From assembly GCF_037042905.1 (NCBI RefSeq), contig NC_087250.1, forward strand, positions 15,130,001 through 15,194,000: 64,000 nucleotides of DNA, written 5' to 3'. Source of the stretch: Lytechinus pictus. Its lineage: Eukaryota. The notes beneath the pieces were generated by a model. The model did not search any database and had not been told where the DNA came from. It worked only from the letters and a program-made list of their open reading frames with translations. Shown here one piece after another: positions 9,989 to 34,800 of this stretch. A program made the translations under genes and the position numbers. Position 1 is the first letter of the stretch; every line of letters begins with the position of its first letter.

Positions 9989-10829
9989 TTAATAATCTTC
10001 CTCCTCTTCCTCTTCTTCCTCATCTTCTGGGGAAGTATCTCCAGTGGTCTCGCCAAAGAGTTCCTTCCCTCGTGCATCACCTGTCAAAAAGTCTGGTGGC
10101 TTGATGTCCCGGCCCTTCAGTCTCAGGGTGACAACATCTGATGAGTCCTGGAGACCTAGAAGAATCATCTGTCCAGACATCACCACCTCTACGCAGGATA
10201 TCCTCAAGTCTGGGGTAAACATGGCAAGCTGCGTAGCGTGGTCAAGGTCCCACAGGGTGATGTCACTGGCAACGATGACAGCACGTGCCCCATCATCAAG
10301 CATGAAGATCTTGCTGCTAGTTGTGAACTGCAGAGACTGTGTCGATGTCCGCAGCCTGCGCAAGGTGCTCCTGCCTCTTTGTATGTCCCACACCTTCAAC
10401 TGATGCCGCTCATTCCCGAACAGCACCCGTGTCGCGTTGTTGTTCATCCCAATGCAGCATACGTTCGGCTCTCGCTTCAACCGCTTTCGGACTTCACCTT
10501 TGTGGAGATTCCACACCGTAACGTAACTGACCTTATCGTTATCGTCATAGTTGACGTGTGCGAGGTACTTCCCTTCGGGAGAGAGAGCAGCAACATAGAG
10601 ATACAGCATGGAGCTTTCGTTCTCAACAGTCTGCAAATGTTGCTGGGTTTCTACATTAAAGACACAGAGATGATGACCAAAATAGGAGCATACCAAGACC
10701 TTTTCATCCTTGCTCATTAAGTACTGCTGAATAGCATTCTCTTTCTCCTTTCTCAGATCGTCCAGTCTCTTCCTTTCCTTCTCGAGCTCCATATCTTTCC
10801 TCTTCTGTCTCTCCTCCTGACTCTCTGAC
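9989..10829 (-). CDS. NWD-like last coding exon: charged helix, WD40 repeats, acidic tail, TAA
   Basis: ORF 9989..10849 with a tttag acceptor at 10830-10831; VWN, VWD and LWD repeats. Confidence 0.95.
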
Positions 10830-13800
10830 CTAAAGGAATGACAAACCAAAACAGAGAGGGCTCATTTAAACAAAATCCTCACAGTGAAAAGCTGTATCAA
10901 TTTCAGACCATAGAGGAATAATCCCCAAGACCCCTACCAGAACCCAACAAAGTTATTTTTGGTGGAAACTAACGTTATATGAGTATCAAATTTGTGGACA
11001 GTAATTCTGGTCAGAAATATGTAATTGTTCAGTCAATAACTTTCAATATAATATGTGTATTAGGTAGGGAAATAAAGCCCAAAGTAGACTTGACATTATA
11101 TGCACCTATCTCTATTCTTTATTCTCTTTTGATAGTGCGTTATTGTGACAGCCTGGGGCAGTAAGGTTACAAGACGTTCGTCTAGGTCTTTAGCACTCTT
11201 TATACGTTGCTAGGCATGAGAACAAAGGGTTGGGACATCAAGTCACCAAACTCCTTGAGAAAATATGCCCCAAATTTCATAACTTTATAAACAAGACTTA
11301 ATGTGACCAGCTTAATTCCATGTTCCATTACCATTCCCCAAGTTCAGAGTTGGAATACGAGTCAAGATTTCTGGGAAACCTACCTCCGTTCCCAAGGCAT
11401 CATTTCTGCTGTGTTTTGTCTCTTGAGTTTAGACCTGAGTTCCTCTACCTCCTTCTTCCTCTGTAGACGATCAGTCTTGAATCCAGTCTTGATTCGGAAC
11501 TTGATATGCCCCGATTCAAGGTTCCAAGCAATGAAGTGATCCCTCGTCTCAGATAGCCTGATTAACAAAGAGAAATGTCTTGATTTAGATTACTTATTCA
11601 AAAGGATTTACAAGTGAAACAAAACCAAGCTATCCCTCAAAATAGAAGAGAGCTGTCCTTATGTCGATGAAAAGTAGTGAACAAATTCCTGGCAGATCTT
11701 TCACGCAAGGGAGATTGAAGTTCAGTTATTGCTTTATTGTATACATAGTCTAGGTGATTGGTGAAAAAAATGTTCAGAAAATGGTACAAGCATGAAAATT
11801 TGCACAAAGGTAGAGTAAGTTATTCTAATCATTTTTAGCAGGGGGTGCCAACGTGAGTTTACCAAATATAGCAACAGTTACTAGGTAACATATTTAGTAA
11901 CTAAGCTTAATTGGGCTTGAGGAACAGTTTCACAGGCAACATGTCACATGAATTTTAGTCTAAAGTATATTTCTTTGTATCACAGCAGTATTGATCCATT
12001 TATTCATAGCAACGGTTGTTAAGGGACCTTTTTCGATAGCAAAAATTGTTTATCATAGTTCAGATTATTATAATTTACTCAGAAGAGCTCAAATGAGTGC
12101 TTGCATGGATACCATTTTATCCCTTGCTAACAGTAGTCGGTCGCTTGAAAGGCCTTGGTTTTATCCCTCCCTTCCGTAGCCTGTAATGAAGATCATATAT
12201 GTTCTCCATGCTGTTCCCGGACCTAATGCTATGTGCAGGAGTTGATTGGCTTGTCAGTTCCGTCTCTTGGATCAATCCTGCGCAGCTCTGGGATCTATCA
12301 TGAAGCGAAAGATCTTGCCAGAGTTGATTTAGACCTGTCAGTTCCATTTCGAGGCATGATGGCCTGGATCCTGCAGCTATATGATTGATCTATGACGACT
12401 CAATCCTGCAGAAGTTGATTTGGACCTGTCCTGTTTCCAGGTGTTTTGACCTGGATCAGTCCTTGCAGCTCCAGGATTCAACACGTCAAAGATCTTGCAA
12501 GAGTTGATTTGGACCAGTCCGGTCTGTTTCAGGTGTGTTGGCCTGGATCCTGCAGCAGTATGATTGATCTATCACAACTAAATCCTGCCAAAGTTGATGT
12601 GGACCTGTCTGTTCTGTTTCCAGATGTTTTGACCTGGATCAATCCTGCAGCTCCAGGATTTATCATCATGTCAAGATCTCGCAAGAGTTGATTTGGACCA
12701 GTCAGTTCTGTTTTAGGTGTGTTGGCCTGGATCCTGCAGCTCCGTGATCTATCATGACTTGAAAGCTCTTGCAGAAGTTGATTTTGATCTGTCAGTTCCA
12801 ATTGCAGGTGTTTTGACTGGGATCCTGCAGCTTCAAGATCTATCATGACTTAAAAGATCTTGCAGGACTATGCGCAGCTGACTTTGTCACATAAATGTGA
12901 AGCACTTGTAATATCAGGTTGGCTGGACGTGATCCATACTCGCTTCCGCAGCCCCTGTTCGCACTGCTTTCTATTTTCCAACCATACTTTTCGATGATCT
13001 GGTACAATATACAATATTGCAGTCTACTGCTTCATCTTAATGATTTATAGGATGCGGCATTAGTAATTAGTGTCAATAAGGCCTACAGAGATTTTCATTT
13101 TTTTTTCTCTCAAAAGATTGTGTTGTATAATCACCAAATGTACTGCTGCGTTATATATTCACAAGTAGTGCACGTAGAGTCAACGATGATTGGGACTGTT
13201 TCAGGTCTACTGAACATGCTATACAGAGCACATACAGTCAATGATGCTTTAAGCTGTTTCAGGTTTACTGTACATGTTATTTAAGTCAGTGAATAATATC
13301 AAAACCTTACTGACAAGTAAGTGTGTGGGCATTACTCGACATTACATCCCAATGAAGCTTTGTCATTTGGGAGCGGTTAGTTCATATAAATCAAATTTCA
13401 GCTTCCCTATGCCCTCATATGCAAAGTTCAGTGTCTTTCCCAGCGTCCCAGGCTACATCCACTACAATACCCTGTCTTATTTTCATAACAGGAGAGATCC
13501 TATTAATTGCTTAATAGTAAGCAATTTTAATGACCCAGTAATTATTTCTTTCTGTGTGTTAGCTGTGTCATGTATGAGTAAAAAGTATGAAGAAAAATAA
13601 TGAAATTATGTACACCGAAATTAGGTTTGTTACCTATAGACGATTATTAGGCAGATAATTTTTTAGAAAGCATCTGAACTGGTGATTGCTAAGGTCAATA
13701 AGTTACCTAGCAACTGTTGCTATATGAGGAGAGATCAGGTTGGCACCCCCTGCTAAAAATGTTCAGCACCATTTACTCTACCTGTCAGCAAAATGTCATG

Positions 13801-16800
13801 CTTGTACCATAATCTGAACAATTCTTGCTATATTTTGCACCGATCATCTAGACTTATATACTTTCACATCAGAAAAGTGTTGTTCGTTTCAGCATATATA
13901 TTTTTTGTCCGAGTGTATGAATTTTGCTGTACTCCTCATGATATGACAGTAAGAAATTTTAATACACCAACATCCAACGAGCATAGCATGTCTAGAGTAA
14001 ATTCTAATCTTTACACTCTTTGTCTGTGTGAAATAGAGCCAGCCGCAGAACATGGTGAATCTAGTCTTGCTACTTCAGACTATGCATTATGCAAAATGCG
14101 AATTGCAAAAGCCAAGGGTCTGTGCCTGCAGACTAGTAACCAGCTAAGAGGGAGAGGACAGTCTACACATGTATCATAAAAAAATCAACAGAATCCTTTC
14201 AGTGAATTTTCAAAGAAACTTGAAAATCAACAGAATCCTTTCTGATCAGTGAATTTTCAAAGAAACTTGAACTATAACTCTCACCCTAGTAGGAGCTCCC
14301 CATCAAGCAATCTGTATTCATGTGCTGGTGAGGGGACTATGAATACTCCAGTCAGCTTTCTGATGTACTTCTTGGTGCCCAGATCATACATGAATACTGT
14401 CTGAAAAACCTGTCATGGATTAAAGATACTGGTTATTAATGATTATATTTCAACAAATATCATTGATTGCAATAAGTGGATCTAGCCGAACTAGACACAA
14501 TAGTTCAGGGGATCAAACGATGTGCATTTGGCCCCTGAAATGGCATTGCATCTTAGTTCTAACCAGGCTAGTAAGCCACTCATTGCATTACTACCATTTT
14601 GGAGGGTCCATAACATTAAGGTGACAATTCTTCCTACGATGAAAATTTCTCGCATAAGAATTTCAATGCATTCTACAATCCCATTTCCTTCTTCGCACAC
14701 TTTTTGTGGCAGCAGTGGGATTGAATTGCTATTATTGGTATTCCTCTAATAATCCATATGATTAGCAAGATGATTAAACTATGTGGAATACAATCAGGAT
14801 GATAAAATGGAGGTGATTTGTAGTTGTTATATATAAGTTAGTGCTTTAGTTCATAATGACAAAAACTGTGAGATCCGCAACAGCCAGATTCGGGATCCTA
14901 CTTGAGATTTTTTTTACACAATGGGATGAAAACAAATATCTGCAGATTCTATACCTTTATATTACATGTTCAAACAATTGACCCTACAACAAATAAGTGA
15001 AAACTGTCTCTACCTCATATGGAATATCCTAACAAATGATGATATAACTATCAAGACTTTATAAGTAAACCTGCAATTAGATACTGACCTGTGATGGCTT
15101 CTCACTGACACTGGACATTCCAAGATCTGACAGGATGACAACCTTGTGGTTCCTGATGAGAACGATGTCATGAGAATCGACAAGCCCTCGCTCGATTCTC
15201 ACTGCATTTCCTGCACACTTCCCCTTGACAACATTCCACACACTCAGCGGGCCGTTCTTGACTGACTTGGCGACGACGTAACGAGGGTTGTCGATCATGG
15301 GGACGAGACCGGTCACGCCAAGGTTCTTCTTGGACCTGTTTGCATTCTCGTCCCGCTCGTTGACTTTCTTGCTGATATTCCAGATGCGAAGGGATTTGCT
15401 GGATTGTGATGCGGTCAGGCAATATAACAGATCCATGCATGCACCAAGCTTGGACATCTATAGAGAATACAAAATGAACATTGAGGCATTGACAGTAACC
15501 AGTGTTGTGCTGTTGCAGAAACTACCCAATTAAAACCAAAAGCGATGCAGGTTGGATTGATATACAGAGAAGAAATGAGGCTCTAACTTTTTGTTATGGT
15601 CAGTTAAGTATCTTCCCACTGGCTATATTATAGGCAATTATGCGAATAGGGGGTCGCAGAAAGATATTTCCTAGATTTGATAATATAACATGCTTGTCCA
15701 ATTAGTAAATTCTCATAATATAGAGGGGGGCACCCCCACCCTCGATCCACCCTGCATTCAGATTAGCACGGTTACCCTAATCAGGTGTTTGAGCATTCAA
15801 GGAATCTAGCCATTCACTACACCTGGGTAGAGAGTGGCAAATAGAGTAAAGAGGATGAGCCTACCTGTGCATGCTTTGCTAGATGTTTATGGTCTTCGGT
15901 TTCTAGATTCCACACTGCCAGTGTTGTTGTGTTTGTATGTGGGTTGGGACAGACAGAGACAGCATGAGACCCGAGACGATTGACGTACAACTCATTCACA
16001 ATGTCTGTTGTGCAACCTGATAAACCAGAGAATGGAGGAGGAAATATATTTTCAATTTATCACAAACAGCAAATGCAAATATAGATCATCCTGTGCAGAC
16101 AGATAAAGATAGGGCCCGTCTTACAAAGAGTTGCGATTGATCTGATCTATTGCAACTTTGTTCAAAATAATTACTAGAAATGATGTATATTCATACATTA
16201 TCTGTTTTCTTGACAATTCAGTATGCTTCTATTTGTTTTCAAAGGACATGAAACAAATCTCCCAAAGAAAAAAGTATGACATTGTTGGATTTCCATAGTT
16301 ACGATTGATCTGATCAATCGTAACTCTTCGTAAGACGGGGCCCAGATATGCAAGAGGAAGGTATTGATGCAAGAAAATATGTGTGATCAATTGCAAACAT
16401 TTATTGAAAATATAAACTTGTATAACCTGGTAAAGCAGAGGAATAGAAGAGGAATGCTGTGATGCAAGAAAGTATTTGCGATAAATTGCAAACATCAATT
16501 ACAAATATAGATCAACTTGGGCAAACTGATAAAGCAGAGATGAGGAGGAATGCTGTGATGCAAGAAAGAATTTGCGATAAATTGCAAACATCAATTACAA
16601 ATATAGATCAACTTGGGCAAACTGGTAAAACAGAGATGGAAGAGGAATGGAATGGTGTGTCGAATAATTTGTGATCATTTGTAAACATTCATTGCAAATA
16701 TAGATCAATTTTAACTCAAGCACTCCAATATTTCACTTCTTGACTCAAGAATCAGACCTGCACTCAATTTAAATCTTGCAGATAAATTCACTTATGATTA

Positions 16801-19800
16801 GTATAGGAAACCAGAAATTGACTTGCAATTGAATGAAAGTCATTTTAACTGCCAATCCTTAGTATATTGAAACATGATAAGTTATTTGTATCGTAATCAA
16901 TGATGCAGTACATCTTGGGCAAGATTTTCCCCAGATCATAAAAACACTATTAATACCACAAGCATATATTTTGTATCTTGAACTGTGTACTTAATAGGTC
17001 CAAAGTGCATTGAACTGCTTACCATCTTGGAAAGAAGTGCATATTATTCCCAGTATAATTTTTCCTAAGTGATTTTCAAACTATAGCAAAGAACTGCTTG
17101 GATTTTGAAAAATGGAAAGTTTCAAGCCCTAAGTATTCAAAAATTGTCTGACCCAGTATACCTATACAGGGGCCGCGGAACCGGGGGGGGGGGGGGGGTC
17201 CCCCCACTTTTTTCCAAAACCGTGTACAAAAACGTAAAATTTACCATATGATTGTGATTTTTAGCATGGTCAGCCCCCCCACTTTTGGCTCAGCCCCCCC
17301 ACTTTGAAAACCGTTCCGCGGCCCCTGCTATATACCCCAAAACAACATTTGTTACCTGTTACTGCCCGAAGGTAGGCCCCATTCTTGATATCAAACAGCT
17401 CTAGCTGATGGATCTCTGAAACCTTCTGGAACATATACCGGCACGCCATCACATAGTAATCCTTGGAAACCCCTAGGGCTGTGATTGAGGCTGAAGGCTT
17501 GGGAGGGGACAGCTTGTGGACCTATCCAGAGAGAAGAAATTGTACAAAAATTTGGAAGATTTAGATATTTCAATCTCAAGCAGAGTTGAGACATAAAATG
17601 GAATATTTGTATGAATTGTTGATGAACTCAATCACACAATAACCAGTCATAACCTTAAAGGACAAGTCCACCCCCAACAGAAAATTGACTTGAATAATAA
17701 GAGAAAAATCCAACAATCATAACGTTGCAAATTTCATCGAAATTGATCAACTATGAATGGACACCTGCCAAGCTCAGGGCTGTTTCTTTACGAGCCATCC
17801 AGGACGATCTACAGAGCGCCCTCACTGTTCATCCTGATGACTTAGAACTACGACTGATGAGTAGCACTCTTCATCTATCAACTAATGCTTTACTCAAGGT
17901 AATAAGAATTTAAGAATTCGCAAACCCAAAGTTGAGGAATTTGTGATATTGTTAGTAATTGACGATATGACCTATGTCACATTTTCAATATTTAATCAAT
18001 AGTTGATAATTACATTTACAGGAAGCACGACTGTTATTATGTTTACCTATCAGTCCAACTTTCTTTAGAAAGAAATACAAAATGATAAAGATTTCCTAAG
18101 TAGTTATCTCAATTTCACCATACCAAGACAACTTCTATTGCAATTCAGGGTGATGAGGGAATGTTTTTTTTACAAATGATTTTTATGTAATCTTTACTAT
18201 AAATCAAAATGGGAAATGTATTTCTGAGCTTCTAAATAGATCTGATTAAAGTTAACCTTATTTCAAACTTTTTCCACCTAAAGGAACATTATCACAGGAT
18301 GGAATTCTCATTTCCGCCAGTAAACAGGAAAAAGTAAGGTTTTAGAAAGCTGAGTAATTTACAGATTTAATAACCACTCAATTAAAATCAAGACGTAATT
18401 TGAAATTCAATCAAATAATGATGGAAAAAAGAGTAGGTACTAGCTGTATCAATTTGGACATACAAAAAAACTGACAGTGCTTTTTCACAAATGTTTAAAA
18501 TTGACAAATATGCAGCTCCTCAATAGATGTGAACAAAGACTTACCTTGTTCCCTGTTCGCGCATTCACCACAGAAGCTGTATTGCTGCTCCTGTATGCAT
18601 AGAGCACCCTCTCACCGAAAGGACTAAAGGAAACACTCAAAGACTCATCCTTGTGTATGCCATGTCCCCCGATGTCAACCTCCACCAAAGACTTGACGCT
18701 TTCGCCCGAGACATCCCAAGTCCGCATGACATTTGACCCCGTGAACAGCGCCACCACCAGGTCATCATTTTCACTGGCGGTTGTGATGACGGGCGGGTCG
18801 ATGTACTGGGTGACCTCCAGGAGGCAGGTGCAGTTGCTGAAGGTGTTGAACTTGATACGACTGGACTCCACCGTGACGGCAATGGTGTCATTCTTGCAGA
18901 GCCTGATTGATGATATCTGAAGAGTGACAGTAAACCATTCAGTTATTAATGTCCAGGTAATCTTGCATAAGTTGAATATTACTCAAAATCAAAGAATTAC
19001 TTTTTAGACCATGGCCCACTTTATAAAGATTAAGAACTATTGTGAAGTTGACATTATATTGTAACTTCCATGGAAATTTGAATGTGAAAGGCTGCTAAGC
19101 CTCATTCAAAAAAAGAAATATGCATCTGTTTTTAATAGCAATTTTTTCCTGGCATCTCAACACTTTAATATGAGCTGACAATGGGCAATTGGAAACATTC
19201 CGAGATTGAGCTAGCACCACATGATGGCGCCTCAACACATTAAGATATTGGCGAAGCTCACCTCTTTTCCTACTCCTTCTATGGTCTTCAAGACCTTCCT
19301 GTTCTTCAAATCCCACAGCTTCACCGACCCATCCCGCGAAGCCGTAGCGGCCACTGCCATGGTCAACCTTGACACCGTCACCGCAGTGATGACCTCCGTG
19401 TGACCTGCCAGGAGGTCGTAGAGCACGCCCCCAGGCTGGGCTAGGCAAGATACAGAGGGAATAAGAGCAGGGGTGGATGACCGCTGCGCTTGGTTGAGCA
19501 TGGAAGCAATAGTAGGGTACTTCTTAGGGTCCCCAATTGACATGGGTTTGTCGTTGGTGATGATGTTAAGGAGCCGGCCAACCATTTGGGAGGCAAGTTG
19601 GTTGGGATCCTATAAAGCAACAGAAAAATAACCATGAAAATCAAACTTAATAATGACATTTACAGTTTTAAGTTATATAATGTCATGCACTAATAAAATG
19701 TCCTAGGAATGTACAGACAAAGTTTGCCATGTATGAATTCATAAGAAATGGAGTAAGGTTTTGTTACGTAGTGTTGGATCGATTGCACTTTACTTTTCAA

Positions 19801-22800
19801 CCAGCAATAATGAAGACACATGATGAGATAAAGAATGCATTTCAAAATATATATTGAGTATTAAACTCTTAGCTAAATCTGACTGGAGTTCAGACATAAA
19901 TCCCTTTTTATAATAGCTATAAAACCTTTCATTCCTTGGCCTGGTCAGCATAGACCTTGGCCAAAGCAATCATCACTTTACTCTGAATCAAGAAGTGGAC
20001 CCTTTTAGGGGAGAAGATGTGAATAAGATACCCATCAAGTGATAGAGCATCATTGATTTAGCTGGAAGAAGAATGAGTAATACTTTCTAAAGAAAGTTGG
20101 ACTGATGGGTAAACATAATACCAGTCGTGCTTCCTGTAAATGTAATTATCAACTATTGATTAGATATTGAAAATGTGACATAAGTCGTATCATCAATTAC
20201 TAACAATGTCAAGCATTTCTCAACTATGGGTTCGCGAATTCTTAAATTCTTATTACCTTGAGTAAAGCATTAGTTGATAGATGAAGAGTGCTACTCATCA
20301 GTCGTAGTTCTAAGTCATCAGGATGAACCGTGAGGGTGCTCTGCAGATCGTCCTGGATGGCTCGTAAAGAAACAGCCCTGAGCTTGGCAAGTGTCCATTC
20401 ATAGTTGATCAAGACCTCTGACTTCAGTTTGTCGAGTTGGCTGGCATGTAGAAGATGATGAGGAAGTTCATTGAGTTTCCGCATGTTGTATTCCTTTACA
20501 GACACGCCTGTTTAGCAAATGAAAGCGGGGATTAGGTTTTAGTGGAATCCAAGCTTGGTCATAAAAAGTTGTGTTGAAAAGAGAAAAATAAGAAAAACAG
20601 AATGGTGAAAGTTTGAGAGAAATCATACAAGCAATCAGAAAGATATGGCTACTTTAAAAGGGCAATTGGACAATATTCCCATATGCAATGTACTTAATTA
20701 TCAGGAATTTGTGGTTTTATCCCATGTAGCTATTCCCCTGGGGGCCTGTAATCAAAGTATAACCCAGGTGGCATATTGTTTTATGTCCTCATGAAAGAAA
20801 AATATAATCTCAAGTAAAACTTTTGAAAAAAAAAATTACATTTTCGCCATTTTATGTATTGGAGTACATGGAAGAGTATTCCTTGCCTTACATCTGGTCT
20901 TTAAACATCTATGATTACAGATTTATTAAACTAAAAGTTTCGATTTTTTTGTGTGTCTAATACGTACTTCTCACTCTAAATCTTATATCAACACTCTGTC
21001 CGGACCAGTGGTCAACTATCAATTTGGTATAATTGATCGGTACTTCAATACTGACTTTGACATAGAAGGTTTTGTCTATTTTGTTTTACATCTGATGATC
21101 AAATTCCTTACTGCTGTAAACCTTATCCCCCTGCTGTATATTAGAAAAGAAACATGCAAAACAAATGGTCTCCTATAACTAAACCGCTGAGTGGAATTTC
21201 TAGAACTACTTATAAAGTTAGACCATGTTTAAAACTAGGCTTTCACATTATTATTACATGGTTGCACCGCTCTGCATCATAAGTCATTAGTCCAAACCAC
21301 TAAAGTGGTGTTACTCTTTTAATTTCAATTGGATATAAATCATTATACAGCACGGACTTTCATTTGATATTGGAAAGATTGAAGAATATATTAGAAAGCC
21401 ATTACTTACCCCTTATATAAGGCCGGCCTTTAGTGATCAAAAAGCAAGCATGAAGAAAACGGCAGAAGAGGTCAACAGCAAAGCAACAGCGTAAATAAAA
21501 TATTATTTGAAAAATAGACCAAAACAGAGTAAAAACCAGAAATTTTGTAACATGACACCTTAATCACTAAAACCCCACTATATATGAATCTTAAATGAGG
21601 CTTTCATAAGAACAGTTATTAGAAATGTCATTTGAACAAACGTTTCTGGATTTCACATAAATGCAAGCAACATGGTTAGTTCATATAAATGGTAGTTGTT
21701 CAGCAAACATATTTTTTAATGGAAATTTGTTGATTGAAGAATGCAAAAGCAGATATTATTTTTTAAATGCATTTTCACCTCAACAGAAAAGAAGAAGAAA
21801 AATGTTAATGAAATAGTTAATATTGTAAATAGATGGGATCATACAATTTAAAATGTTAGCTTTTGAATTTGACGAAGCAGTTTCAGATAAGACAGAACTT
21901 TTTTTTGATAGAACGTTCAGATATAGTGAATAAGTAAGATGTTTTATGATGAAGATAGCTTTAGAATACTTATACTTGTTTTGCATCAACATGGAAAGAA
22001 TTGTTTCAGATTGAAAATAATAGAAAATGGGACAGGAAAAAGTCTATGAGGATCTTTTGGAATAATAAGTTTAAAAAAAGCAATAAAGTCTATGTAACTG
22101 CCTGAAGGTGATTTTGAAGTTGGAACAAATACCGGTAAGCTATATATTTATGCACTGCCCTTTGCATTGAAAAAAGCGTTTCAGTAAAGCAGGGGGGCAA
22201 TTTCATGTTCAGTGTTATAAAAAGCTGGTTAATTATGATTGAGACAAATTAGCACTATCAAACACACCAACAAAATGTTGGGGCTAGGATTATCTTAATC
22301 ACACTCCAAACATCAACACTCACATTCACACCCTTTTTCACCTCACTCACAAGTTTGTAGGTTTAATTTTTAAAAGCTATTGGGAACGGAACGCCATAAC
22401 TAAAAATTTTAACACATCACATTCTCTGCAATCTCAGCAAAGGCATTCTTGGCATGATTAAAGAGCAAAGCAATCAATCAGTAATTTAACTTCAAACTCC
22501 TTCATACCTGATGGTTTAATTCTGGTCATCAGAAGCGGATGAGGGTTGATGAAGCGATCCGCCCCACCCTCGTTGCCAGGATACGGTTTCTTCCGGTCCG
22601 CCCACTTCCCCATGAAGTATTCTCCCAGAGCACTGTGATATGAGGGCGCTTTATCCTTTTGATTTAGATATCTGCACAGATTAATTGATACATATTGTAA
22701 AATAACCAAAGACCTCAATCATCATTATGATCGAAGGCTCCATAGAATCTTTTGAAGCTTATGATGTTGTGATGTAAGTCAGGGGCACATCAAGAATTCA

Positions 22801-25800
22801 TTCAAGATTTTTCAGTCTTTAAAAAATCTGGGTGCGTATCAACTGAATTACATTGCGTTTGTTCTTATAACTGGTGCAAACACTTCTTTCTATCAAAGTC
22901 GTTTGGCACACATAATTCATGTATATACAATTCGTTGACTGGTCATTTTGTTTGATCCAGTTCAAACCAATTTTGTGATGGTTAGCAATCTGCCCACTAC
23001 AGGCAACCACCGTCCCTAACACTGGTTTTTAGCAGTTGACGCTCCACATGAATTAAACAGAGCTATCCAATTGTAGGACTATAAGCCACAGCAAGATCTA
23101 ATCATATGTTGTCCATTCAAACGCACAGAGATTTTGTTTCATTACTTTTTTATTCCTTTTAAACACTGTATCTTGTAGCATATCATGATTGTTTTACAGT
23201 TAATAGCCACATCACCTGTGGCATTGATCCAGCTGCTTTAGGTATCAGAAGGCATACAACAAAGAGCTTAACCAACAAGGGCTGAGACTTTCAAAATTGT
23301 AAGCCTTTTTCATCACCTTTACCAAAATATAGAAATGACAAGATGCAGAATTATCAACAGAGGTAAGACCATTTGCTTCAGGATCAAGAATACTTACCTC
23401 TCTGTAGCTGCCTCTCTGAACTGTTGATCGGCCCATCTCCATACCCACACACCATCCACCTTCCAGACCCTGAACAACTTCCTCAGGTCAGCCTTGAGCC
23501 GATACCAGAGGGCGGGAGGCATGCGTCTTAGGGTCGGGGAGTGGTTCTTGGCAATGTCCGTCATAACGTGCTCATCACAGGAGAGGATGTCGTTGAGCTC
23601 GGTCCATGATAGGCCACTCCGTGCTGCAGTCAGATAGCCAAGGCAACGTCTGACCAGAGGTTCACCATGTTTCGTTTCAAGTGATATCAGGATACCTTTG
23701 GGGAAAGAATTGGAAAATGGGAAATAAAATGTACAGAAGTATTCTGTTAAAGCAATTGTGAAAAATATAATTTAAGTCATATAAAATCTGGGAGTTAATA
23801 AAAAAATTTGCTGACAAAATATTATTATCATATATTATATATTTTTTACCTTCAAATGAGTACCTCAAGGAACTCCTATAGGTCTACTTTTGTTTTTATC
23901 CCTATGTACATGTAGCAAGGTTATAGTCTGTCTGTAGAACTGCTGTGAACCACAAGCTCCTATCATCAGCAGCAGGGTCAAATTTCATAAAGACTTGTTA
24001 AAATAACAAATGCACAATTTCAAACACAAATTTACTATCAGTCAATCGGATGAAAGAATTTCAGGTTTTATGAAATGGGCCCCAGATCATCAGCATACCA
24101 TTCAACATCTTCTTTAGATCCGTTGCAAGGTACGTCTCCCTCTTCTCTGAGAAACTCCTCCATCTGACCGCCTGGTCACAGACCAACCTCAGATACAAGG
24201 GTGATGATATCTTCTCCAGTGCCTTCATGACAGTCTCATGCTGCTCCTGGGTGATCCGACGCCCTTCCTGCTTCAGGAGGTAGCTGACGATGTACTTTGA
24301 CTCTTCTTGAGTAAGGTCAGGAATCATGTAGAAGTCTGCATCGAGACATTGTTTCTGGAGGAAAAGTAAAGAAATTATATTTACAATCATGTCGATGACA
24401 TATGCCAAACTTAATAAATGAATAAATATTGAATTAAATTTTAACAAATTAACATATTGGAAAAGGGGTAATAACAATAACAGCTGAAGTTACCCTGGGT
24501 AAATACAAATTATTGTTATCATTATAATCCACAATTTCAATTCACTTTTGTCTACTTTTGGTGACAGCAGTGGGATGAAAACCTATGCAATCAAAATGAC
24601 GATAATTAAGTGAGGACATTTAAAGGATGGTTATCTTTTAACAAGGCAAAAGCAATTTGTGTCTCGCCCACTTATGAAAATGACCAGAAATATCGTGATT
24701 TGCGAGGGCACGCAAGAGAATTATATCGAAACTTCATTGTGAAATGACTGTGATGGAATAACACTTGTCATAAGAGCCTTGCACGTAAACTTTAATGTTG
24801 ACCTGAAAATGACCTTTGACCTTACCAGGTGACCTCTGACTGCAGCATAACATGCAGGTCGCCTAAGTACATCTACCATCCAAGTTTTGTTGAAAAGTAA
24901 CTTACGGTTGCGGAGTTAGGTGTCATAAGAGAGTCTTGCATGTAAACTTTAACATTGACCTGAAAATGACCTTTGACCTAACCATGTGACCTCCGACTGC
25001 AGCATAACATGCAGGTCCCCCAAGTCCATCTACCATCCAAGTTTGGATGAAATGCGACTTATGGTTGTGGAGTTAGGTGTCATAAGAGAGTCTTGCATGT
25101 AAACTTTAACGTTAAACCTGATATGACCTTTGACCTTACCATGTGACCTCCGACTGCAGCATAAGATGCAGGTCCCCCAAGTCCATCTACCATCCAAGTT
25201 TGGTTGGAAATCGACTTACGGTTGGGGAGTTATGTGTCATTAGGTTTGTGACGGACGGACGACGGACGACATTTGGATCCCTAAGTCTCGCCTTCACCTC
25301 CGGTGGGCGAGACAAAAATGTGATAATGGTACTCAGTTTATACCAATCAACATTCCAGGTATATGATTCATACACTTTCATACAATCTATCAGAACTCAA
25401 GTTGAGGCTCTCTTCCAACTACTGTCTGAAGGTGTTAGGTTGGATGGAATGGATTGAACAAATCCTCAACAAGAGCGGATTGATCTCATATTGAACAATT
25501 GAAGACATGTATCATTGTGTTTTATACAACCACTCTTTTAGATCCTATCATCAAATATGAACTACTGATGGTGGGATTCAGACATTTATGAATTTATATT
25601 TCTCAATTCAATTACCAAAAGAAAGGGAGTAAATCTCACATTTTAAGAGTAGATCTGTTATGTGATAATTGGCTCTAAATCAAGTCCTCTCATGAAATAG
25701 CTGTATATCATTCAAACCATGTTTATTTTCTTCTATTAAACGGAGAAGCAAAAAAAAAAAAATCTTAGCCAATTTTAAGTTCAGATGTAGTAACATCTCC

Positions 25801-28800
25801 TGAAATGTGTGTTACCTTCAGAGCTTTGAAGCTGTCCGTCTTCTCTTCCTCTAGAGTTGTACATGAGACGACTATCTTCACATTCTCTGGAAGGTTGCTA
25901 GGCAACCAGACCATGGACCTGGCCTTGTAGTCATTGCTCAATTTATCAGGTCCATCAATGAAGATGACGAGGGGTTGTTGAGTTGTTGCTATGGCAATAC
26001 GTCCCTCAAGGTCATTGATAAGCGCATAGAAATCCTGAATCACATGAAAGAAAAGGGAAAAGAAATCACTTAAAATGTACCTTGTCAAAAGTTTGAGAGG
26101 CATCCGGTGTGTTGGCTCAGTTGGTAGAGCGTCCGTCTCACAACCGGGAGGTTGGGGGTTCAAACCCTGGCCGCGTCAGACCAAAAGACGTTAAAAGATG
26201 GGAGTTGCTGCTACCCTGTTTGGCGTTCAACGATTAAAGGGATAGAGCCTCGTCGATCTGGCGCTGCACAGCGGCTGCCGGGCCCACGATCAATTGGGCA
26301 AAGCAAATTTTCGGAGTATTTCATTTCATGTCTATTTCGAACAATAAATTATGGATTTATCATTTATTTATCATTTTATTTTAGCACGGGATATCAACTA
26401 AAAGACATGGCAAAGACATTTGATAAGGTGACTTAAGCCAATAAGTATATATCAATGTGATTTTCTCCCTTATTGCTTGGCTTTGATTAGGTAATTAATT
26501 TTATTCTGTTGTACAAAATAACCCAGGAAACGGACGGGTTGGCCCTGTTGTAGCAGATAGTCCCTAAATATCCACAAAACTCTATTCTAGAGGTGACCAC
26601 TTCCATCAACAGAGCCCTGAAATCAACAGAAGAATTTACAGGAATGTATGTTCAACTATCATTTCTGTGCCCATGCTTTGTTATAAATGTAAAAGTCCAA
26701 TAAATATGTTTGTACTTTTCTATAATGTCTAACACTATCACTATACATTATCTCATTGTGTGATGTGCACCAAAAAGTAGCCCCAAACTAAATGAAATAT
26801 CCCTAAATGGATCAGTAAAAGTCCCATGACCAAAAAAACAGCCCTTCAAGATAAATAATTTATTCCGACGCTGGTTATAAACTTCATTCTGAGATCATTA
26901 TTACATTTTTGACATTAAAAAAAAGGAAACTGATTGGGTAAGGAATTGTCTTATGACAGAAAAGAAAATAGCCCTTTAAAAGAAATAATCAATTCACACC
27001 CCATTTTTAAATTTCATTCTGTGACATTTGTTATCTTTCAAAATGTAGGGCTACCATTAGTTTCCTTCACACATACCTCTGGGACGGCCGCAAGATCCAT
27101 ATTGTATGTGTGCCCGATCTGTTGGCATATTCCCTGTAGTAGACATCTGATGTTTTCTGATTCTGCTGTTAGGCCAACAAACCTCACTACTGTGGCTGCG
27201 TCTCTCCTGAAACCAAACATAATAATAATAATAATAATAATAACGCAGTTCTTGTATAGCGCATATCACATTATGTCATAACGTCCCTATGCGCTTCCAA
27301 AGGACTTGGATATTATTACCCTGGCTTTAGCCCCACAGCCTTATACAGCGCGGTGGCATTTCAAGGAATAAATTCCTGCCAGGTACCCATTCATCTCACC
27401 TGGGTTGAGTGCAGCACAACGTGGATGAATTCCTTGCTGAAGGAAATTACGCCATGGCTGGGATTCGAACCCACAACCCTCTGTTTCAAAGTAAGAAGAC
27501 TAATCCACTGGGCCACAACGCTCCACGCTCCATAATGTAATGGTTAATATTGAATATTACAAGAAAAATGCCATTGGTGATAACAATTTAAAATGAGTTC
27601 GTACAGAGATAAAAAAATCTCAAAAATTAGAAAATGCTTTAAAAAGGCAATATAAGGATGCAAAAAGTATCTCCATATCAGGAAGGAGTTAGGGTTGGGT
27701 TTATAAAAAGAAAACCACATTGTGGGCCCCCTTCGGTCTATCATGGAGATGTCAGTATAATTTAGAAAAACCCTTTGTATTTCGAAAACGGACCCACAAT
27801 CACTATGAATTCAATTTTACTGTATAAATATTGTATTTACATAATTAACTTTATAGAATATATAAGTAATTTCCAACGCATGGCCAGCCATGCATCCAGT
27901 AAATTAGCCATGCGTTTGGTAATTACTTATGCAGGGTTGTAAAAAACTTCATTTTTCGCCCCAAAATTCCACCAATGTATAAAACAAATAATACACAGAT
28001 TTCTTCATGAATTGGTAGGACAAGTGAGCATGCAGTAATGGTGGGAACTAGTCTAAGCCAACTCAGCTGAGCCTTGTGGGTTCCATAGTTACCTTATGGT
28101 CACAAAACCTACCCATGCACTCATATCTGTGCATCATTTGCATAATAAAAATTGATTGGAAACTTGTGAATATAACTGAAGTTTATTTACTCTTTAAACC
28201 AAGATTTGGTGAGCTGGCAAGCTTTGGCGATCAGTGATGTCTTTCCTCTCCCAGCGAGTCCACAGAGCACAAGAGGTTTATAATTGTCACCGAGGAGATA
28301 CTCTTTGATGTACTGGAGGGGTTCTTTCCTTCCATAGAAACATTGAGACCTAGGAATTTTCAGAGCATGATAATGATAATAATAATGATGATAATGATAA
28401 TATTAATAATAAAAATAACAATAATAATGATAATAATAATAATTACAATAATCCTAACAAAAAGTTAAGCTTTTGATGTTAACAAAAGAAAAACAAATCT
28501 CTGAGAGTTACACCTAAATTCTCAGCGATGTGACCCGATTTGACCTATATAGTTACACAGCCGGCAATTTCGAGGTAAATCTCTTGAGATTTCTTGTGCA
28601 GAGATCAAAAGCTTTTAGCCATTTTGTTATTTTCAACCAACACAGACAAACTTTCATGATCGTCTTAATATTAATGATCATGATGATGATCATAATGATT
28701 ATACAACGTTTTAACACTTTATCATCCCAGCCACAGAAAGATAAAGGCCTACATTGGTTTAAGAGCGTCATAATACCGTACAATCAATTATTTGTGCAAA

Positions 28801-31800
28801 TTACAAAAGCATGATAATACTAGCAACAAGAGTAATAACAATCATGGTGATGATGACAATAACAGTAACGATAATGATAAGCTTCAACTTCTACTATTAT
28901 ACTATTTCTACTACTACTGCTACTATTATTACTTCTTCTATTACCATTATCACTATATTACTACTAGAACTCCTACTATACTGCTACTATCACTACTACT
29001 ACCCCTACTACTCCTGCAACATGTACTACTACTAAAATTTATACTACTACTACTACTGCCACTACCACTACTTCTACTACCACCACTACTACTAGTACTA
29101 CTACTACTACTACTATTATTACTACTCCTACTACTAATGATACTACTACTACTACAACTACTACTACTTCTACTCCTACTACTACTGCTACTACTACTAC
29201 TACTACGATGTTAATAATAATGACAATAATGTAAAATCTGTGTCTGACAGACATGGCTACCATACAAGAACCCACTGTTATCATTATCATATCTATAAAT
29301 ACAAATATGCCTACCTTTCCTGTAAAAAGTTGATATGTTGGGCAACCTCCTCATATAGGCCATATGATGGAGTAGAAGTGAGCGACTTATCTTCTAACAT
29401 CGCCCTCTCAAGTTTGACTTTCACGGTATCGAAGAACTCATTAGCAAGTCCGTCTAGATACTGAGAGTGCGCCCTCACATGGGTAGGACTGACGCCATCT
29501 TTATGCCACATGATTGTGTGCTCATGAACATTACTGAAGCCAATCTAGAAGGAATATCACAAGACATTATCATTCAACAATGCAAATTGGCAACTTTTCA
29601 TAAAGATTCTGCTATTATCATTTATTTTGATATGTGTTAACATTATATCAATATGAAATGAATAAGAATTAGTGATCGTTGCCAATTTGTGGAACAAAAA
29701 AAGATTACTTTTGACCTTATCAAAGTTGTGAAACTCTTTTAAATAGTAAATAATAATAACTACATTTTTTGCCTGTCAAATTTAGGGACACCCCCCCCTT
29801 AAAAAATCCTGGATCCACTGCTGACATTTGTTATGTCCACATATCCACTTAAACTTTTCCAAGGAAGTTCAAGGCACTTAATAGTTCACAAAATAAAAAT
29901 AAAAAGCAGCAATATAGAAGAAAATATATACAATATATATCATACATGACTATAAATCTCAATACATTTCAAAGGAAATGAGTTAACCAGCAGTGGCAGA
30001 TCAGGATTTTAAAATAGAGGGGGCACAGACGACAATTCTTTTTCAGATTTAGCTATATAGGTATATTCAATGGGCAATCCTCAAATTATAGAGGGAGAGT
30101 GTGCATCTTGCTCCCTCGCCTGAGGCCACCAATGTCTAGGAGAGTAAATGATAATCTGAGACATGAGATATGTATTTGAGCTTCTTTGTAATGTCTGAAC
30201 AAAGTGTCATATAGAGATCATAGTGTGATCACATAGTGAAATATGTGAAAATATTATTAACACTTTTAAAATGTTCAAATGTAACGGTGTGAAAGAAAGT
30301 GTGCACTGTGGTTACCTCTATAGTGTGGATTTTCAGTGTGTTCACCTGGTCCACTAAGTGAATGTGTGAGTCACACTGTTGAAATACTCAAATGTAACGG
30401 TGTAAAGGTGATTTCACATTGTGTTCCACACTGTGAACACGCTGTGGAACACTGCTCTTTCCAGTAATGAGGGGATGGAATTTGATATATGAAAGGGAGG
30501 GATTTGCATAAGAGCATACCTTTGATGGAACTTTCACATCCCGGAGATCTTCGGCCCTCTCAAACTTCGGAAAGTCAATTTCCGGTTTCAGGTTCTGCAG
30601 GTCGATGAAATCTTTGGCGTTGTAGTCCTGGAGGTTTTTACGGAGGTCTTTGATATGTCGGACAAAGCTAGCCACTTTCTTGCTCTTTTCTGGCTCAGCC
30701 GAAAAGACGGCATGATCTAGCTCTCTTTCATTCACTGTGGAATAAAGGTAGAATCAAATTCCTGAGATGATAAAGTGAATTTTACTTTGTATAACACATT
30801 TATTGATTAATTAACTTTTCATGCAATAATTGTGCATACAAGATAATATAAATTAAAAAAAAATGTTCATGGTAAAATAATAACCCTCATAAAATTTCAT
30901 CTAACCATATAGACTAAGTGTTACATGTAGACCAACTTGATAAAAGACAACATGGTACCTGGAAATCAGACAATATGATAAATGAGATCAATTACAATAA
31001 GATCAGTAGAAGATCTGGTTTTAGGTGAATTTGAATTAGACCTTGTGGTATAAGACCAAACTGGAAGTAGACACATGCAAGGTGGTTCATGGACAACAAG
31101 TCTCGCCTGATTAAAATATGCAATATGACCTTTTGACCCCTAGATCACCTTTTATGTTATCATCGTCATGAACACACATGTGGTATTACCAACGGATCAC
31201 ATGTACCAAGTGTAATGATAATGGATGCAGAAATATCGGACCAACAGATGTGATCACTAGGTTTCTGTCAATCTTCGTTCAGGCAAGACAAAAAAATGGG
31301 TGCTGCCCAAGTGGGAATTTACCAAGAAATGTCATGTACCTGTTTGGAGATATGATTCCGCTCGCTTGGTGTCCTTTACAGCCATAGGAACATACTTTGT
31401 TAGGGTCTTGATGATTCTCTTATACATCACAATCCATTGGTTCTTGGCTCGCAGTCTTTTTTGCTTATCATTGCTGAGGATCTCTCGGAACTGAGAACTG
31501 CCGAGACAATAGAAATATATTTGTTGGATGGATAGAATAATTACGCCTAATACAGATTTGGAAGCAATTGTTAGACCATTCTGTATATGAGCTTAGGAGG
31601 AAAGTGTTCGCATAATTATTTCCACAAGCTGTATCATGCAAAAAGCCAAAAGCATTTTTCAGAACAGATATATCCAGCAACACAAATATCAAATTATAGA
31701 ACTGATACAATAAAACATATCATAATATAACAAAAGCCGACATTTTCAAAACTCCTATTTCTGCAAATTAAGGCAAAATGACTAGGCAAGTTTGATACAA

Positions 31801-34800
31801 GTAAACACACTTTAAAAAAGTGAGCATACAATACACAGGAAATGAAATTTAATTAACTTATACATAAATAATTTAAAAATAAAAATAAAACAGGTTTTCT
31901 TTCCATTCATCTTCCTCTCTCTCTCTCACACACACACACACTCCAATTCTCAGAAAAATATACATATATTTCCCAGTTAGAAGGTACACCGTAATTCCAC
32001 AGTTTCAGCACTGTCTGGCGATGACCTATGACCCCATCTCACCTGATTGGTTGCAAGACATATAGCGGAGGAACACTATTTTCATCTAACTTATACCAGG
32101 TCTTGAGGGCATTCAGGTCAGCATCAAACTCCTTTTCGACGGGTCCTTTGTCCAAATCATCCTGCCCTTCTCCTGGTAACCTCTCAACCTCACTAAAAGG
32201 AACACAAAAAACACCAATCAGTAACAATAAAACAATTCAGAAAAAACAGCATAGTACATATTTCTGCTTTCATGCAAGCATCTCATCGATAGTCTTATTT
32301 AAATTGTCTTATTTTTTTTCATCATATATTTCTCCTCCTTATCCTTCATGATCATCTTGTTCTTATTCTCCTCATTAGTATTATTTTCATATTTTCCTCC
32401 TACTTTGCCTTTGTCTTCTTCCTCCTCCTCCCCTTCCTCCTCTTATCCTTCTTATTTTACCAACAATTGTTATAGGCTAAAAAAATCTGAGCACAGTATT
32501 GGCAACGACACTCCATGAAATGTTTCCCATCCTCCCTCAGCTCAAGGTGCGAAAATGCAAAACCCCTATCAATAGGCAGGTGCAGGACAGCGTAGTGATG
32601 TCACAATACAATAATAAATTACATCTTGATTTATTTGTGGCAGCGGTGGGATATTGTCATTTTATCAAATTTAGATATACACGAACCTCATTTCATAATT
32701 CTATCCTGTAAAAAGCTACTGAAGTGTTGGAATTTGATTGGCTAAGAATGTATTTGCCATAGACTTATCGTGTTGGATATTGGTAACAAGTGTTATGAAA
32801 GAATGCCCTTTGATCATACAAAAGTAAAATATGCCATAAATGTGTCATTTCATGCCATTGAAATCGTGTTTGATTCTTATACACAATAAGTCATCATCAA
32901 ATAATATCTGCCCACAAAAATATTGTTTAACAATTTGAATATAGTGCAGAATTCAGACAGTATGTCAATACTTAAATTTTCAATGTGCACATTACATTAT
33001 GCTGTTCATATCCAGCGCAATATTCAATATTTTTTACCAACAAACATCTCTTTCAATTCATATGAACTTGACTTCAGAAAACATATTGTCTAAAATTCAA
33101 GACAGAAAGAAAACTGAAAAATCTACTTTGAGTTGGAGAAGATTGAGGTGAGAAAGGATGAACAAAAGAAATGCAAATTCAAGAGGGGAAAATACTAGAT
33201 TGAAATGGTAATGACATAAGCATACACATGAAACCAAGAACAAGCAACTTACCGCCAAACTGAATTCCGACTGTATGAAGCATGCAATGAATGTGTATAG
33301 TGAATGAAAGTTAGTATTAAGCATTAAGTGGTGATAACAAAATGCATGATTCACATGAAAATGAGCTTTTAAATAACTTTCACAGACGAAATTGGCATCC
33401 TATTTTAGAATGAATTATGAAAGATTTAAATGGGTCGAACTCTGAAAATAATTTGACTTCCGAATTATGATGAAATGTATTGATTAAGGAAAATATAATG
33501 ATTAAATATGTCATATCTCAATTTGTAATTTCATTCTTTATATTTTTGGGTTTCAATATTGGATTGATAATTTGGGTTGTATTTTTGTTTGGTTAATAAA
33601 TGCATCTTCCCTGGAAGTATTCTCATTATATTCCAAATCATCAGGATTGACAACCGTCTCACACTGAATACAAAAAATCAGTTGGAATTCCATTACACAA
33701 TCTTAATAAATCAGATTATTTTAATAAAAAATAAGCGAGAAAACAAAAAAATAATGATCATTCCCCTACATCTTAAATCAAATTAAAGAGACCAGTGAAA
33801 AATCAAATCAAACAAACAAAAATGAAACAAAAACAGGGCACTTCCAAGGCATTTTGCAAGTATTACAATGATGCACTACTTTTGAAAACTGACTAGAAGT
33901 TCTAGTAGATTTGACTGAGATCAAGATAAAAATAAGGTCCAAAGAATTGTCTCGAAACTTGTCTCATTGCGAATCCATATTTTGCACAAGCTCTAATGAC
34001 TGAATTGAAATATAGACTTCGAGGAGAATAAGATGATAGGCCTATTCGTAATACTTGGGAGAGAATGCCTTGGACATGCCCAAACTGTAAAAACTATGAT
34101 GTTAAACAGCAACAGGCAGTGTTGTCAGAGAACTTTGACCTCAGGAGTTACAAATACATTAAATTGGGTGGTATAGTTCATATATTACACCAAAATGGGT
34201 GGTATAGTTTGTATATTACACCAAATTGGGTGTATTATAGTCTACCTTTCTATGGAATGCTAGCTAGCTTTCATCCCCCTTCTTCGATATCAATGAAAAA
34301 CAAGATTAGTATGCACCAAATAAATTTATTTTACCCTATTATCATATTCTTCTCTTTTTAGAATAAACTAGAAATGTTTTCACTATCAGATTGAATGATT
34401 TAAATTTGTTAAATAAGATGGTTACTATAGCATTCCATAAAATGTTTGGTCGAAGTTAACCTAGAGTTAACTAAACCATTGCGATGAGAATACCACCAAT
34501 AGTGTCTCGGAAATAGAATAACACCAATGGCTGCTGAATTAATAACACCCATGGATTAAAACTGGTATATCAAAATGCTTCTTAAGGAATTCTGACAACA
34601 CTGACTGGTATAGTTTAACACCACTGATTTTGCAGTGTAAAAAGCTAGAAACAAACGTGCGTTACCGACGGTTTATCCCACCGAACACCCTCATGGAAAG
34701 CATCATGCGGTTCACACTAGACAACAAAGAACGCTTTGCTCTTCATGGAGGAGAGAAAAAGGTCACATGCAAAGTGATTAAGACGAAAGAGGGATATAGT

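Follow-up and report, generated by a model that had tools for sequence, protein, structure and literature searches.

Does an inverted copy of a gene's own exon-intron junction make that gene a splicing switch? The question is raised by a 64,000-nucleotide window of the Lytechinus pictus genome (NC_087250.1, positions 15,130,001 to 15,194,000), in which part of a coding exon, its donor site and the adjoining intron recur backwards within the same gene. The original prediction was a built-in dsRNA, exon-skipping or circRNA switch. Its geometry holds, and all of its coordinates are correct. The switch itself is not borne out: the anatomy looks like a repair accident in a MITE, the substitutions fit neutral drift, the copy was not found in the one DNA run from a related species (organism B), and the transcript assembled from same-species RNA (run X1) is canonical and unedited. 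The probable history, in our view, is an insertion restricted to one lineage and templated locally, through error-prone repair or template switching, with drift since; any circle, skip or editing would then be a minor by-product and no selected switch.

The host exons are collinear with a 1735-aa Apostichopus japonicus protein (P0004) that contains Pfam NACHT, HTH_NWD1 and WD40 domains above cut-offs. These domains were also found in a relative (P0002), and the exons of the window align in order along the domains of both proteins. An 18-exon chain running from 31497 to 9989 gives 1542 codons with 0 internal stops. By its predicted product the host is a NACHT-WD40 gene, NWD1/NWD2-like in the sense of a class likeness that assigns orthology to neither NWD1 nor NWD2. 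A metagenome scan for related loci returned 2 of 597 stretches, with distant WD40 matches only (31%, 57% over part of the query), unsuitable for comparing introns. The four exons around the inverted pair all have AG/GT ends, and a single 3414-nt X1 contig at depth 63.5 joins them canonically with 0 changed letters. Exon ends and contig order confirm the predicted exon coordinates and phases. Feature coordinates are collected in Table 1.

Table 1 Coordinates of the host gene, the inverted pair and the flanking repeats within the window
Feature	Position	Strand	Description
Host gene	9989..39870	-	NACHT, winged helix of NWD1 type, WD40 propellers (NWD1/NWD2-like); ≥21 exons; true 5' end possibly more upstream
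Source exon	20257..20507	-	Coding, before first WD40 repeat; 251 nt, phase 1-0; tblastn with P0004, P0002, P0001; spliced in X1 contig
Bracketed exon 1	19262..19609	-	Coding; 348 nt, phase 0-0; WD40 repeat, Pfam E=8.5e-5
Bracketed exon 2	18545..18916	-	Coding; 372 nt, phase 0-0
Next exon	17356..17521	-	Coding; 166 nt, phase 0-1; acceptor of any in-frame skip
Source arm	20083..20412	-	5' arm in pre-mRNA; 3' part of source exon, its donor, 174 nt intron
Inverted copy	17743..18072	+	3' arm in pre-mRNA; 156 nt exon + donor + 174 nt intron; loose extension to 18078
Mismatch-free stretch of copy	17827..17921	+	95 nt; covers copied donor; source 20234-20328
MITE stump	17655..17743	+	TTAA target + first ~85 nt of left terminal repeat, Kolobok-type ends
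Older dispersed repeat	19970..20195	.	In source intron; copied stretch ends inside; 72-78% identity to many genomic places

Ungapped alignment confirmed that the copy is the reverse complement of the source arm. Over 330 nt the arms mismatch at 17 positions, 4 of them coding (156 nt) and 13 intronic (174 nt), and the BLAST match between the arms has E = 7.6e-148 within the window. A repeat search gave a slightly wider pair, 17743-18078 and 20077-20412, that aligns over 336 nt without gaps (94% complementary, 19 mismatches) with 1998 nt between the arms. The exon order of the X1 contig places both arms in one pre-mRNA, bracketing two phase-0 exons as predicted. The intronic portions (174 bp, 92.5% identity) lie in both introns flanking the two-exon block, and the arms are 473 and 472 nt from the back-splice sites, a symmetry spotted post hoc. 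DNA and protein searches of the 811.7-Mb genome identified the copy as the only close second copy of the source exon. It lies 2.0-2.7 kb from this only close template, in the opposite orientation, and the template includes intron. A paralog as the source was ruled out, the other best matches being 35-51% at the protein level. The window contains seven distinct inverted pairs of at least 100 nt (11 BLAST rows). Besides the pair described here, six show 75-91% likeness, none with coding sequence as far as mapped, and 36 other loci (112 kb, a repeat-biased sample) contained two inverted pairs, 85-87% alike.

The left junction was read directly. The copy starts at the last base of an 88-nt MITE stump. 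The intact family is present in high copy (2846 first-look candidates, 40 scored) and measures ~610 nt (611-nt consensus) with AG...CT termini. Both ends are present in 21 of 29 retrieved copies, 18 of the 21 with TTAA on both sides. PMC9587614 defines Kolobok-type non-autonomous elements by a TTAA target duplication and RR...YY termini, and the intact family resembles them in both respects; unlike an intact element, only the stump is present here. By these hallmarks of its ends the flanking element would be a Kolobok-type MITE. The stump is 88.8% identical to consensus positions 1-88 and differs from it at 9 of 84 sites, compared to 0-4 for other copies, and thus seems to have inserted long ago. 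Past the junction ~520 nt of the consensus are absent, a count that assumes a once-whole MITE, and no matching remainder was found beside the stump. The consensus is ~80% self-complementary end to end. At the left junction, to which these figures apply, microhomology is 1 nt with certainty, or 3 nt should this MITE have carried a variant present in 7 of 29 copies. The right flank of the copy (18079-18540) is unique DNA with no right MITE end. The copied stretch ends within an older dispersed repeat to which 7 of 7 retrieved loci align. Neither this repeat nor the stump had been noticed in the original prediction.

These junctions suggest the following order of events. A DNA break would have occurred ~88 nt into the fold-back MITE within intron 17522-18544. 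With 1-3 nt of microhomology, the broken end may have found a priming site on the opposite strand at a distance of 2.3-2.7 kb. From there 330 nt would have been copied backwards across the exon-intron junction and then rejoined, with loss of the remaining MITE. Both arms would have drifted afterwards. A repair or template-switch origin is favored because the copy takes over exactly where the stump ends, with no further MITE sequence left, and because the only template is local and the copy contains intron sequence and no poly(A). Two features of such events are present: a nearby inverted template that includes intron, and missing sequence where the copy was inserted. PMC2621351 proposes that replication forks stall and switch template at hairpins, and the MMBIR/FoSTeS insertions described there likewise combine an inverted local duplication with a deletion and short microhomology beside a hairpin-forming repeat. 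The 1-3 nt of the left junction compare with 2-5 bp typical of those cases. The pathway was presumably of the MMBIR/FoSTeS or SDSA type; template switching, SDSA and polymerase-theta repair cannot be separated from sequence alone. An mRNA retrocopy was ruled out by the intron in the copy and its lack of poly(A), and a staggered-break inversion was ruled out since the intervening exons retain the orientation of the gene.

Divergence between the arms was used to judge the age of the copy. The intron parts differ by 7.5% (CI 4-12%), far more than the 1.2% that separates the assembly from a second haplotype of its species and close to the 7-11% that separates it from organism B. The copy is therefore old and not a misplaced allele. 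The 4 coding mismatches among 17 compare with 6.1 expected for a neutral copy of a constrained exon (P=0.22), and this pattern fits neutral drift of the copy; a plain equal-rate test of coding and intron mismatches, which tells against this reading, gave P=0.049. Changes are found on both arms. In the copy, an L>P change altered a hydrophobic position; in the gene, a T stands where both the copy and the consensus of relatives read A. The mismatches are clustered, with 10 of 17 within 51 nt (P=0.001-0.004, or 0.035 with a triple change counted as one event). The perfect 95-nt run across the donor has a chance of 0.05 unweighted and 0.08-0.13 with neutral-copy weighting. Gene conversion or selection for pairing could produce both the clustering and the run. 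Twelve of the 17 mismatches disrupt pairing and 5 are G-U. We found no conserved duplex with compensatory changes, and in the single organism B individual the source was present and the copy region had depth 0. An Rfam search of 15000-23000 gave no match.

DNA from organism B (X9, one run, one individual) covers 20059-20658 with one contig at depth 61.4, compared to 61.3 for a neighboring single-copy contig. Depth over 17846-18027 is 0, a coverage hole that alone proves nothing. At the MITE site, a contig of organism B ends at the TTAA with 8 unaligned letters, so the MITE may have inserted before or after the two species separated.

The arms were then considered as RNA. The predicted duplex of the whole arms is -557 kcal/mol, compared to -73 and -77 for local folds; the intron-only arms (174 bp) give -244 kcal/mol and the 156-nt exon arm -304 kcal/mol. 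On this model the arms can pair in the nascent RNA of carriers. Transcription would finish intron 19610-20256 some 1.5-1.9 kb ahead of the second arm, and on this kinetic argument co-transcriptional splicing probably wins in most cases and the main mRNA is normal. By analogy with TBXT, minor skipping or circles in carriers are plausible. That carriers make at least trace amounts of circle or skip is a distinct possibility, and we lean slightly against it. Neither the predicted 20257-to-17521 skip joint nor the 18545-to-19609 back-splice was among the 15 best-supported of 35 joints, and the main X1 contig has both bracketed exons. Contigs drop rare forms, and the X1 animals may or may not carry the copy; X1 depth over 17846-18209 is 0. 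A run search gave 23 rows with no matching run recorded as RNA, a result without weight for expression, and 4 of the 23 runs were analyzed. Raw reads of X22 contain the linear joint 18916|19262 five times. The raw reads of X21 and X22 are ~6% of each run, and their exon depth of 0-4 is too thin for rare circles or editing; their change-type tallies were left out as dominated by repeat reads from elsewhere. No rare circle, skip or edit was found at the RNA depth available, and such forms may exist.

A stem of accidental origin could have been recruited afterwards as a TBXT-like regulator under selection. In some tissue or stage it would then produce either a substantial in-frame 720-nt skip, with the first WD40 blades among the 240 aa lost, or a 720-nt circle in abundance. 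We consider this unlikely. The arms do flank an in-frame block of two phase 0-0 exons, their predicted duplex is highly stable with its 95-nt perfect run at the donor, and the layout is that of a locus with reverse-complementary matches in both flanking introns. There are precedents. PMC10901737 describes an AluY-AluSx1 pair 1448 bp apart that causes TBXT skipping, and an engineered 297-bp inverted intron copy (Tbxt-insRCS) that leads to exon skipping in mouse Tbxt. The present pair resembles both as a lineage-restricted inverted pair of ~300 bp, 1.5-2 kb apart, in introns flanking an in-frame block, and resembles insRCS in that its second arm was copied from the gene's own sequence. Unlike insRCS, this second arm is natural and has 156 nt of exon plus the donor; unlike TBXT, where skipping is proven, none was seen here. 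In Caenorhabditis elegans, reverse-complementary matches promote skipping and back-splicing (PMC8330042), and the zip-2 locus likewise has complementary arms in the introns around the exons to be circularized or skipped. At zip-2 the match spans 13 nt, is conserved across five nematodes and proved necessary on deletion, whereas the present pair is long, was not found in the related species, and yielded no circle in these data. Besides the RNA joints and the canonical main contig, the organism B result and the neutral substitution pattern, the stem itself argues against recruitment, as it covers donor 20257, which the in-frame skip needs.

The coding potential of the circle does not distinguish the locus. 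Computation confirms a 720-nt circle of 240 codons that is stop-free, and the predicted ATG at 19583-19585 is one of 5 in-frame Met codons. Rolling-circle translation had been singled out on this basis. Stop-free circles arise from 18 of 58 exon blocks of the host gene, including 3 of 15 two-exon blocks. All 18 blocks whose length is a multiple of three give a stop-free circle, 17 of them with an in-frame ATG, and the rolling-circle argument therefore carries little weight. A species-only natural counterpart of the insRCS allele, with a 240-aa-less isoform or translatable circle in an unsampled tissue or stage and the 95 nt kept paired by conversion or selection, is similarly doubtful. If the regulator reading were true, the pair would be an invertebrate counterpart of the TBXT Alu pair, self-templated and made by a transposon break.

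The stem might instead act as a cis dsRNA that lowers or recodes the carrier allele through donor masking or splicing delay, ADAR editing over the 156 exon nt, or Dicer siRNAs against its own exon. To this we give little credence. The exon arm is predicted to pair at 152 of 156 positions plus 2 G-U wobbles and contains 42 adenosines, and such pairing of exon with intron inside one pre-mRNA is the editing-complementary layout of ADAR targets. An X1 contig at depth 5.6 in the intron just upstream (20893-22536), the only intron of the examined stretch with a contig outside repeats, could signal retention. That signal may just reflect the longer intron, and the contig, with 20 substitutions and 19 gaps, represents another haplotype than the assembly. 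The main X1 contig has no changed letter over the exon, and no plus-strand T>C difference in the exon appears among 40 of the 626 letter differences, at a raw exon depth <2.

An assembly artefact, in which a piece of the other haplotype was misplaced backwards in the intron, is highly improbable. No contig or read bridged either copy junction in the RNA and DNA runs analyzed, and no copy was found in organism B. Against this, the arms are far more divergent in the intron than same-species haplotypes, the left junction falls on the exact base of the MITE break, with microhomology, an ancestral codon lost from the gene survives in the copy, and the window is free of N. Pack-type capture, in which the MITE took up the fragment and reinserted nearby, is scarcely credible: the fragment does directly follow a MITE end, but it does not lie between two element ends, no right end or matching target duplication occurs past 18072, and no second fragment copy exists elsewhere in the genome.

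With a repair-made copy that drifts neutrally as the preferred reading, the locus would be a clean record of an exon-flanking inverted pair that arose without paired transposons, by self-templated healing of a MITE break, in a gene that tolerates a potential 330-bp stem on one donor. If carriers do make the skip or circle, it would be a natural, species-restricted test of whether co-transcriptional splicing outruns long-range pairing and whether repair accidents create new STAND-type protein isoforms. A comparison of carriers with non-carriers, or of two species, would make the question directly testable. A narrow literature search found no natural inverted copy of a gene's own exon, which is no proof of absence, and sea urchin circRNA papers, judged by titles, had nothing on the subject. 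In the amphioxus "mirages" (PMC3087553), too, a gene contains within an intron a copy of one of its exon-intron boundaries (~150 coding nt) and is still spliced normally. Those copies form minisatellite-like, head-to-tail tandems beside their exon, whereas this copy is single, inverted and two introns away, and can therefore base-pair with the original instead of offering a decoy splice site. Just one tandem array occurs in 15000-24500; its 96-nt unit, at 16365-16649, is unrelated to the copy.

The arms of the inverted repeat align without gaps over 336 nt (17743-18078 with 20077-20412) at 94% identity, the strongest off-diagonal match of the window (E 7.6e-148). Re-alignment reproduced the repeat described in the original prediction, with 4 of 156 coding nt differing, and its exon boundaries and phases were also correct. 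Over 330 nt there are 17 differences, 13 of them in 174 intron nt; 5 leave a G-U pair and 12 break a pair. DNA and protein searches of the 811.7-Mb genome found no further close match to the exon part of the arms. Weaker inverted pairs and direct duplications are listed with the other features in the table.

Features of the inverted pair, its host gene, and surrounding repeats
Feature	Position	Strand	Remarks
Inverted copy	17743-18072
Source arm	20083-20412		End of exon 20257-20507, donor, and intron
Bracketed exons	19262-19609; 18545-18916	-	Between the arms
Next exon	17356-17521	-
MITE left end (stump)	17655-17743		88 nt, directly before copy; high-copy element, 2846 first-look candidates, 40 scored
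Older dispersed repeat	19970-20195		Source intron; copied stretch ends within it
High-copy repeats	20563-20894		Intron upstream of source exon; one part 70% like the TTAA-flanked MITE; attract hundreds of reads originating elsewhere
Degenerate MITE relative	61508-62077		67-69%
Weaker inverted pair	30224-30446 / 35226-35450		75-80%; within host gene; encloses three exons
Weaker inverted pair	16151-16343 / 38527-38721		75-80%; within host gene
Weaker inverted pair	11739-11894 / 13697-13861		75-80%; within host gene
Tandem array	16365-16649		96-nt unit, 3 copies, 86% matches; intron after exon 17356-17521
Inverted pair, 49 nt	16112-16160 / 16294-16342		Next to tandem array
Non-coding direct tandem duplication	44275-44770		~250 nt units (96%)
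Non-coding direct tandem duplication	24766-25243		~155 nt units
Non-coding direct tandem duplication	36801-37293		~180 nt units
Non-coding direct tandem duplication	12268-12867		~90 nt units
Ser/Pro-rich open frame, 332 aa	40614-41609	-	Upstream of first matched exon
Cysteine-rich open frame	62863-63222	-

The exons of the host gene, on the minus strand, match, in colinear order, P0004, a 1735-aa Apostichopus japonicus protein with NACHT, NWD1-type winged-helix, and WD40 domains; the query exon is 63% identical to it, and this match places the organism among the echinoderms. Chaining 18 exons between 31497 and 9989 gives 1542 codons with zero internal stops; some outer boundaries are predicted with an accuracy of one or two codons. 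The Ser/Pro-rich frame has no match in Pfam and none to P0004, and is probably an N-terminal exon of this gene. The cysteine-rich frame resembles a Kazal/follistatin-type exon and may belong to a neighboring gene. Elsewhere in the genome, a 135-kb stretch (G000:C1:6070105-6205027) contains three sequences distantly related to the host exon (35-51%) in 732-754-aa open frames, so intron-poor NACHT-WD40-like genes may be clustered there.

The RNA comparison covered 4 of the 23 listed runs. Run X1, of unrecorded type, behaves like RNA; it and the raw runs X21 and X22 are labelled as one species. Its 3414-nt contig (depth 63.5) joins 22507 to 20506-20256, 19608-19262, 18916-18543, and 17519-17354 with zero changed letters, and no X1 contig lies over 17846-18209. 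The best-supported 15 of 35 joints include no back-splice, skip, or strand-change joint. The main product is therefore canonical and unedited in the X1 sample. X21 and X22 are rRNA-depleted runs in which ~6% of reads were used and exon depth was 0-4; five X22 reads contain the linear joint of 18916 to 19262. Among the 40 of 626 difference rows covered, the exon differences of these two runs were few, and they were common to organism B, another species, or not of editing type. Trace depth at 17846-18027 in X21 (0.46) and X22 (0.69), about one read each and confined to pairs whose first mate maps to the minus strand, may stem from antisense transcription of the copy, from source-arm reads placed on it, or from repeat reads. 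A 1677-nt X1 contig covers intron 20893-22536 at depth 5.6 (exons 63.5); it carries 20 substitutions and 19 gaps, and many of its letters are common to organism B. No other intron of the compared stretch has such an X1 contig.

Once both arms exist, the modeled duplex would be thermodynamically overwhelming: its energy is -557 kcal/mol over the full arms (intron parts -244, exon part -304), and the single arms folded on themselves reach -73 and -77 kcal/mol. Once the source-arm intron is finished, the polymerase needs another 1537-1866 nt to make the second arm, about a minute at usual elongation rates. With this head start the first intron would probably be spliced first in most cases, leaving only the exon part to pair, and that only until intron 17522-18544 is removed; most transcripts would thus yield normal mRNA and a minority would be caught in the stem. 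Trapped transcripts might be back-spliced, skipped, edited, or degraded. Back-splicing or decay would seem likelier than the in-frame skip because skipping has to use the 20257 donor, and that site lies within the stem; if made, the skip would, from exon and domain positions, delete the linker and first WD40 blades. By analogy, there is strong precedent for inverted pairs affecting splicing. An engineered inverted intron copy (297-bp) is described as causing skipping in mouse Tbxt (PMC10901737), reverse-complementary matches as promoting both skipping and back-splicing in Caenorhabditis elegans (PMC8330042), and inverted Alu duplexes as associated with skipping in primates (PMC13019944). In geometry the pair here resembles a reverse-complementary-match or TBXT-type pair, and the locus counts only as a candidate for circRNA, skipping, or editing. 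Trace circle or skip products in carriers are possible, if somewhat doubtful.

The original prediction also held that the bracketed exons could form a circle open to rolling-circle translation. The circle does have 240 stop-free codons and an ATG at 19583-19585, but this carries little weight because symmetric phase alone suffices. Among blocks of 1-4 internal exons of the host gene, 18/58 have a length divisible by three (3/15 of the two-exon blocks); all 18 give stop-free circles and 17 contain an in-frame ATG. As evidence, the stop-free circle says hardly more than that the phases are symmetric, for which the chance is roughly one in three.

Each arm has acquired changes: the copy has a Leu-to-Pro change, and in the gene Thr stands in place of an Ala found both in the copy and in the consensus of three relatives. 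Two coding differences are synonymous. Coding sequence is less diverged than intron in an equal-rate test (P=0.049), which looks like constraint; if a constrained exon was copied and the copy then drifted neutrally, 6.1 coding differences are expected, and the 4 observed (P=0.22) are consistent with this. The arrangement of the differences counts against the neutral reading, as 10/17 fall within 51 nt (P 0.001-0.004, or 0.035 with a triple change taken as one event) and 95 nt spanning the donor match perfectly (P 0.05-0.13). Both patterns would be accounted for equally well by selection, by clustered mutation, or by gene conversion from arm to arm. Distances to the back-splice sites are 473 nt for one arm and 472 nt for the other, a symmetry spotted post hoc. 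We consider it quite unlikely that the stem has a selected regulatory role, as the proposed dsRNA, exon-skipping, or circRNA switch would.

The arms differ by 7.5% in the intron (CI 4-12%). Divergence from the assembly is 1.2% for a second same-species haplotype, measured in the next intron, and for organism B it is 7-11% over most stretches and 20% in one 150-nt piece; these identities lead us to infer that organism B is a close relative. The comparison rules out a misplaced allele and puts the copy at roughly the age of the split from organism B, or younger. In the organism B run X9 (labelled 'DNA?', one individual), a single contig covers 20059-20658 at depth 61.4, and its neighbor has 61.3. 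Coverage is zero at 17846-18027 in this individual, where a hole alone proves nothing. A second copy would raise the depth at the source or copy site, so organism B gives no sign of one, and conservation of the pair failed in this one relative examined.

The stump next to the inverted copy belongs to a MITE family in which both ends are present in 21/29 fetched copies. These 21 are about 600 nt long, and 18 of them have TTAA at both sides; the termini are AG...CT, the consensus is ~80% self-complementary, and the ends fit the Kolobok definition given in PMC9587614. The element breaks off at consensus position 88, the gene copy begins at that very base, and the following ~520 nt of MITE were not found adjoining the break. 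The left junction shares 1 nt with certainty, or 3 nt if the stump had a variant present in 7/29 MITE copies; beyond the other end the window continues as unique DNA. Template switching is described as leaving an inverted local duplication with a deletion, short microhomology, and a hairpin-forming repeat alongside (PMC2621351), and the junction sequences appear to show this pattern. Capture of the gene fragment by a transposon is unlikely because the right MITE end is absent. The copy reads as a templated inverted insertion, of a kind already known, which makes an exon-flanking reverse-complementary pair. It differs from the amphioxus mirages, as outlined in PMC3087553, in being single and inverted, and narrow literature searches turned up no article describing a natural, inverted duplicate of a gene's own exon-donor junction. 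The stump differs from the consensus at 9/84 sites, compared to 0-4/84 in the 21 full-length copies, which suggests that the MITE insertion is old. Yet the organism B contig ends at the TTAA with 8 letters unaligned.
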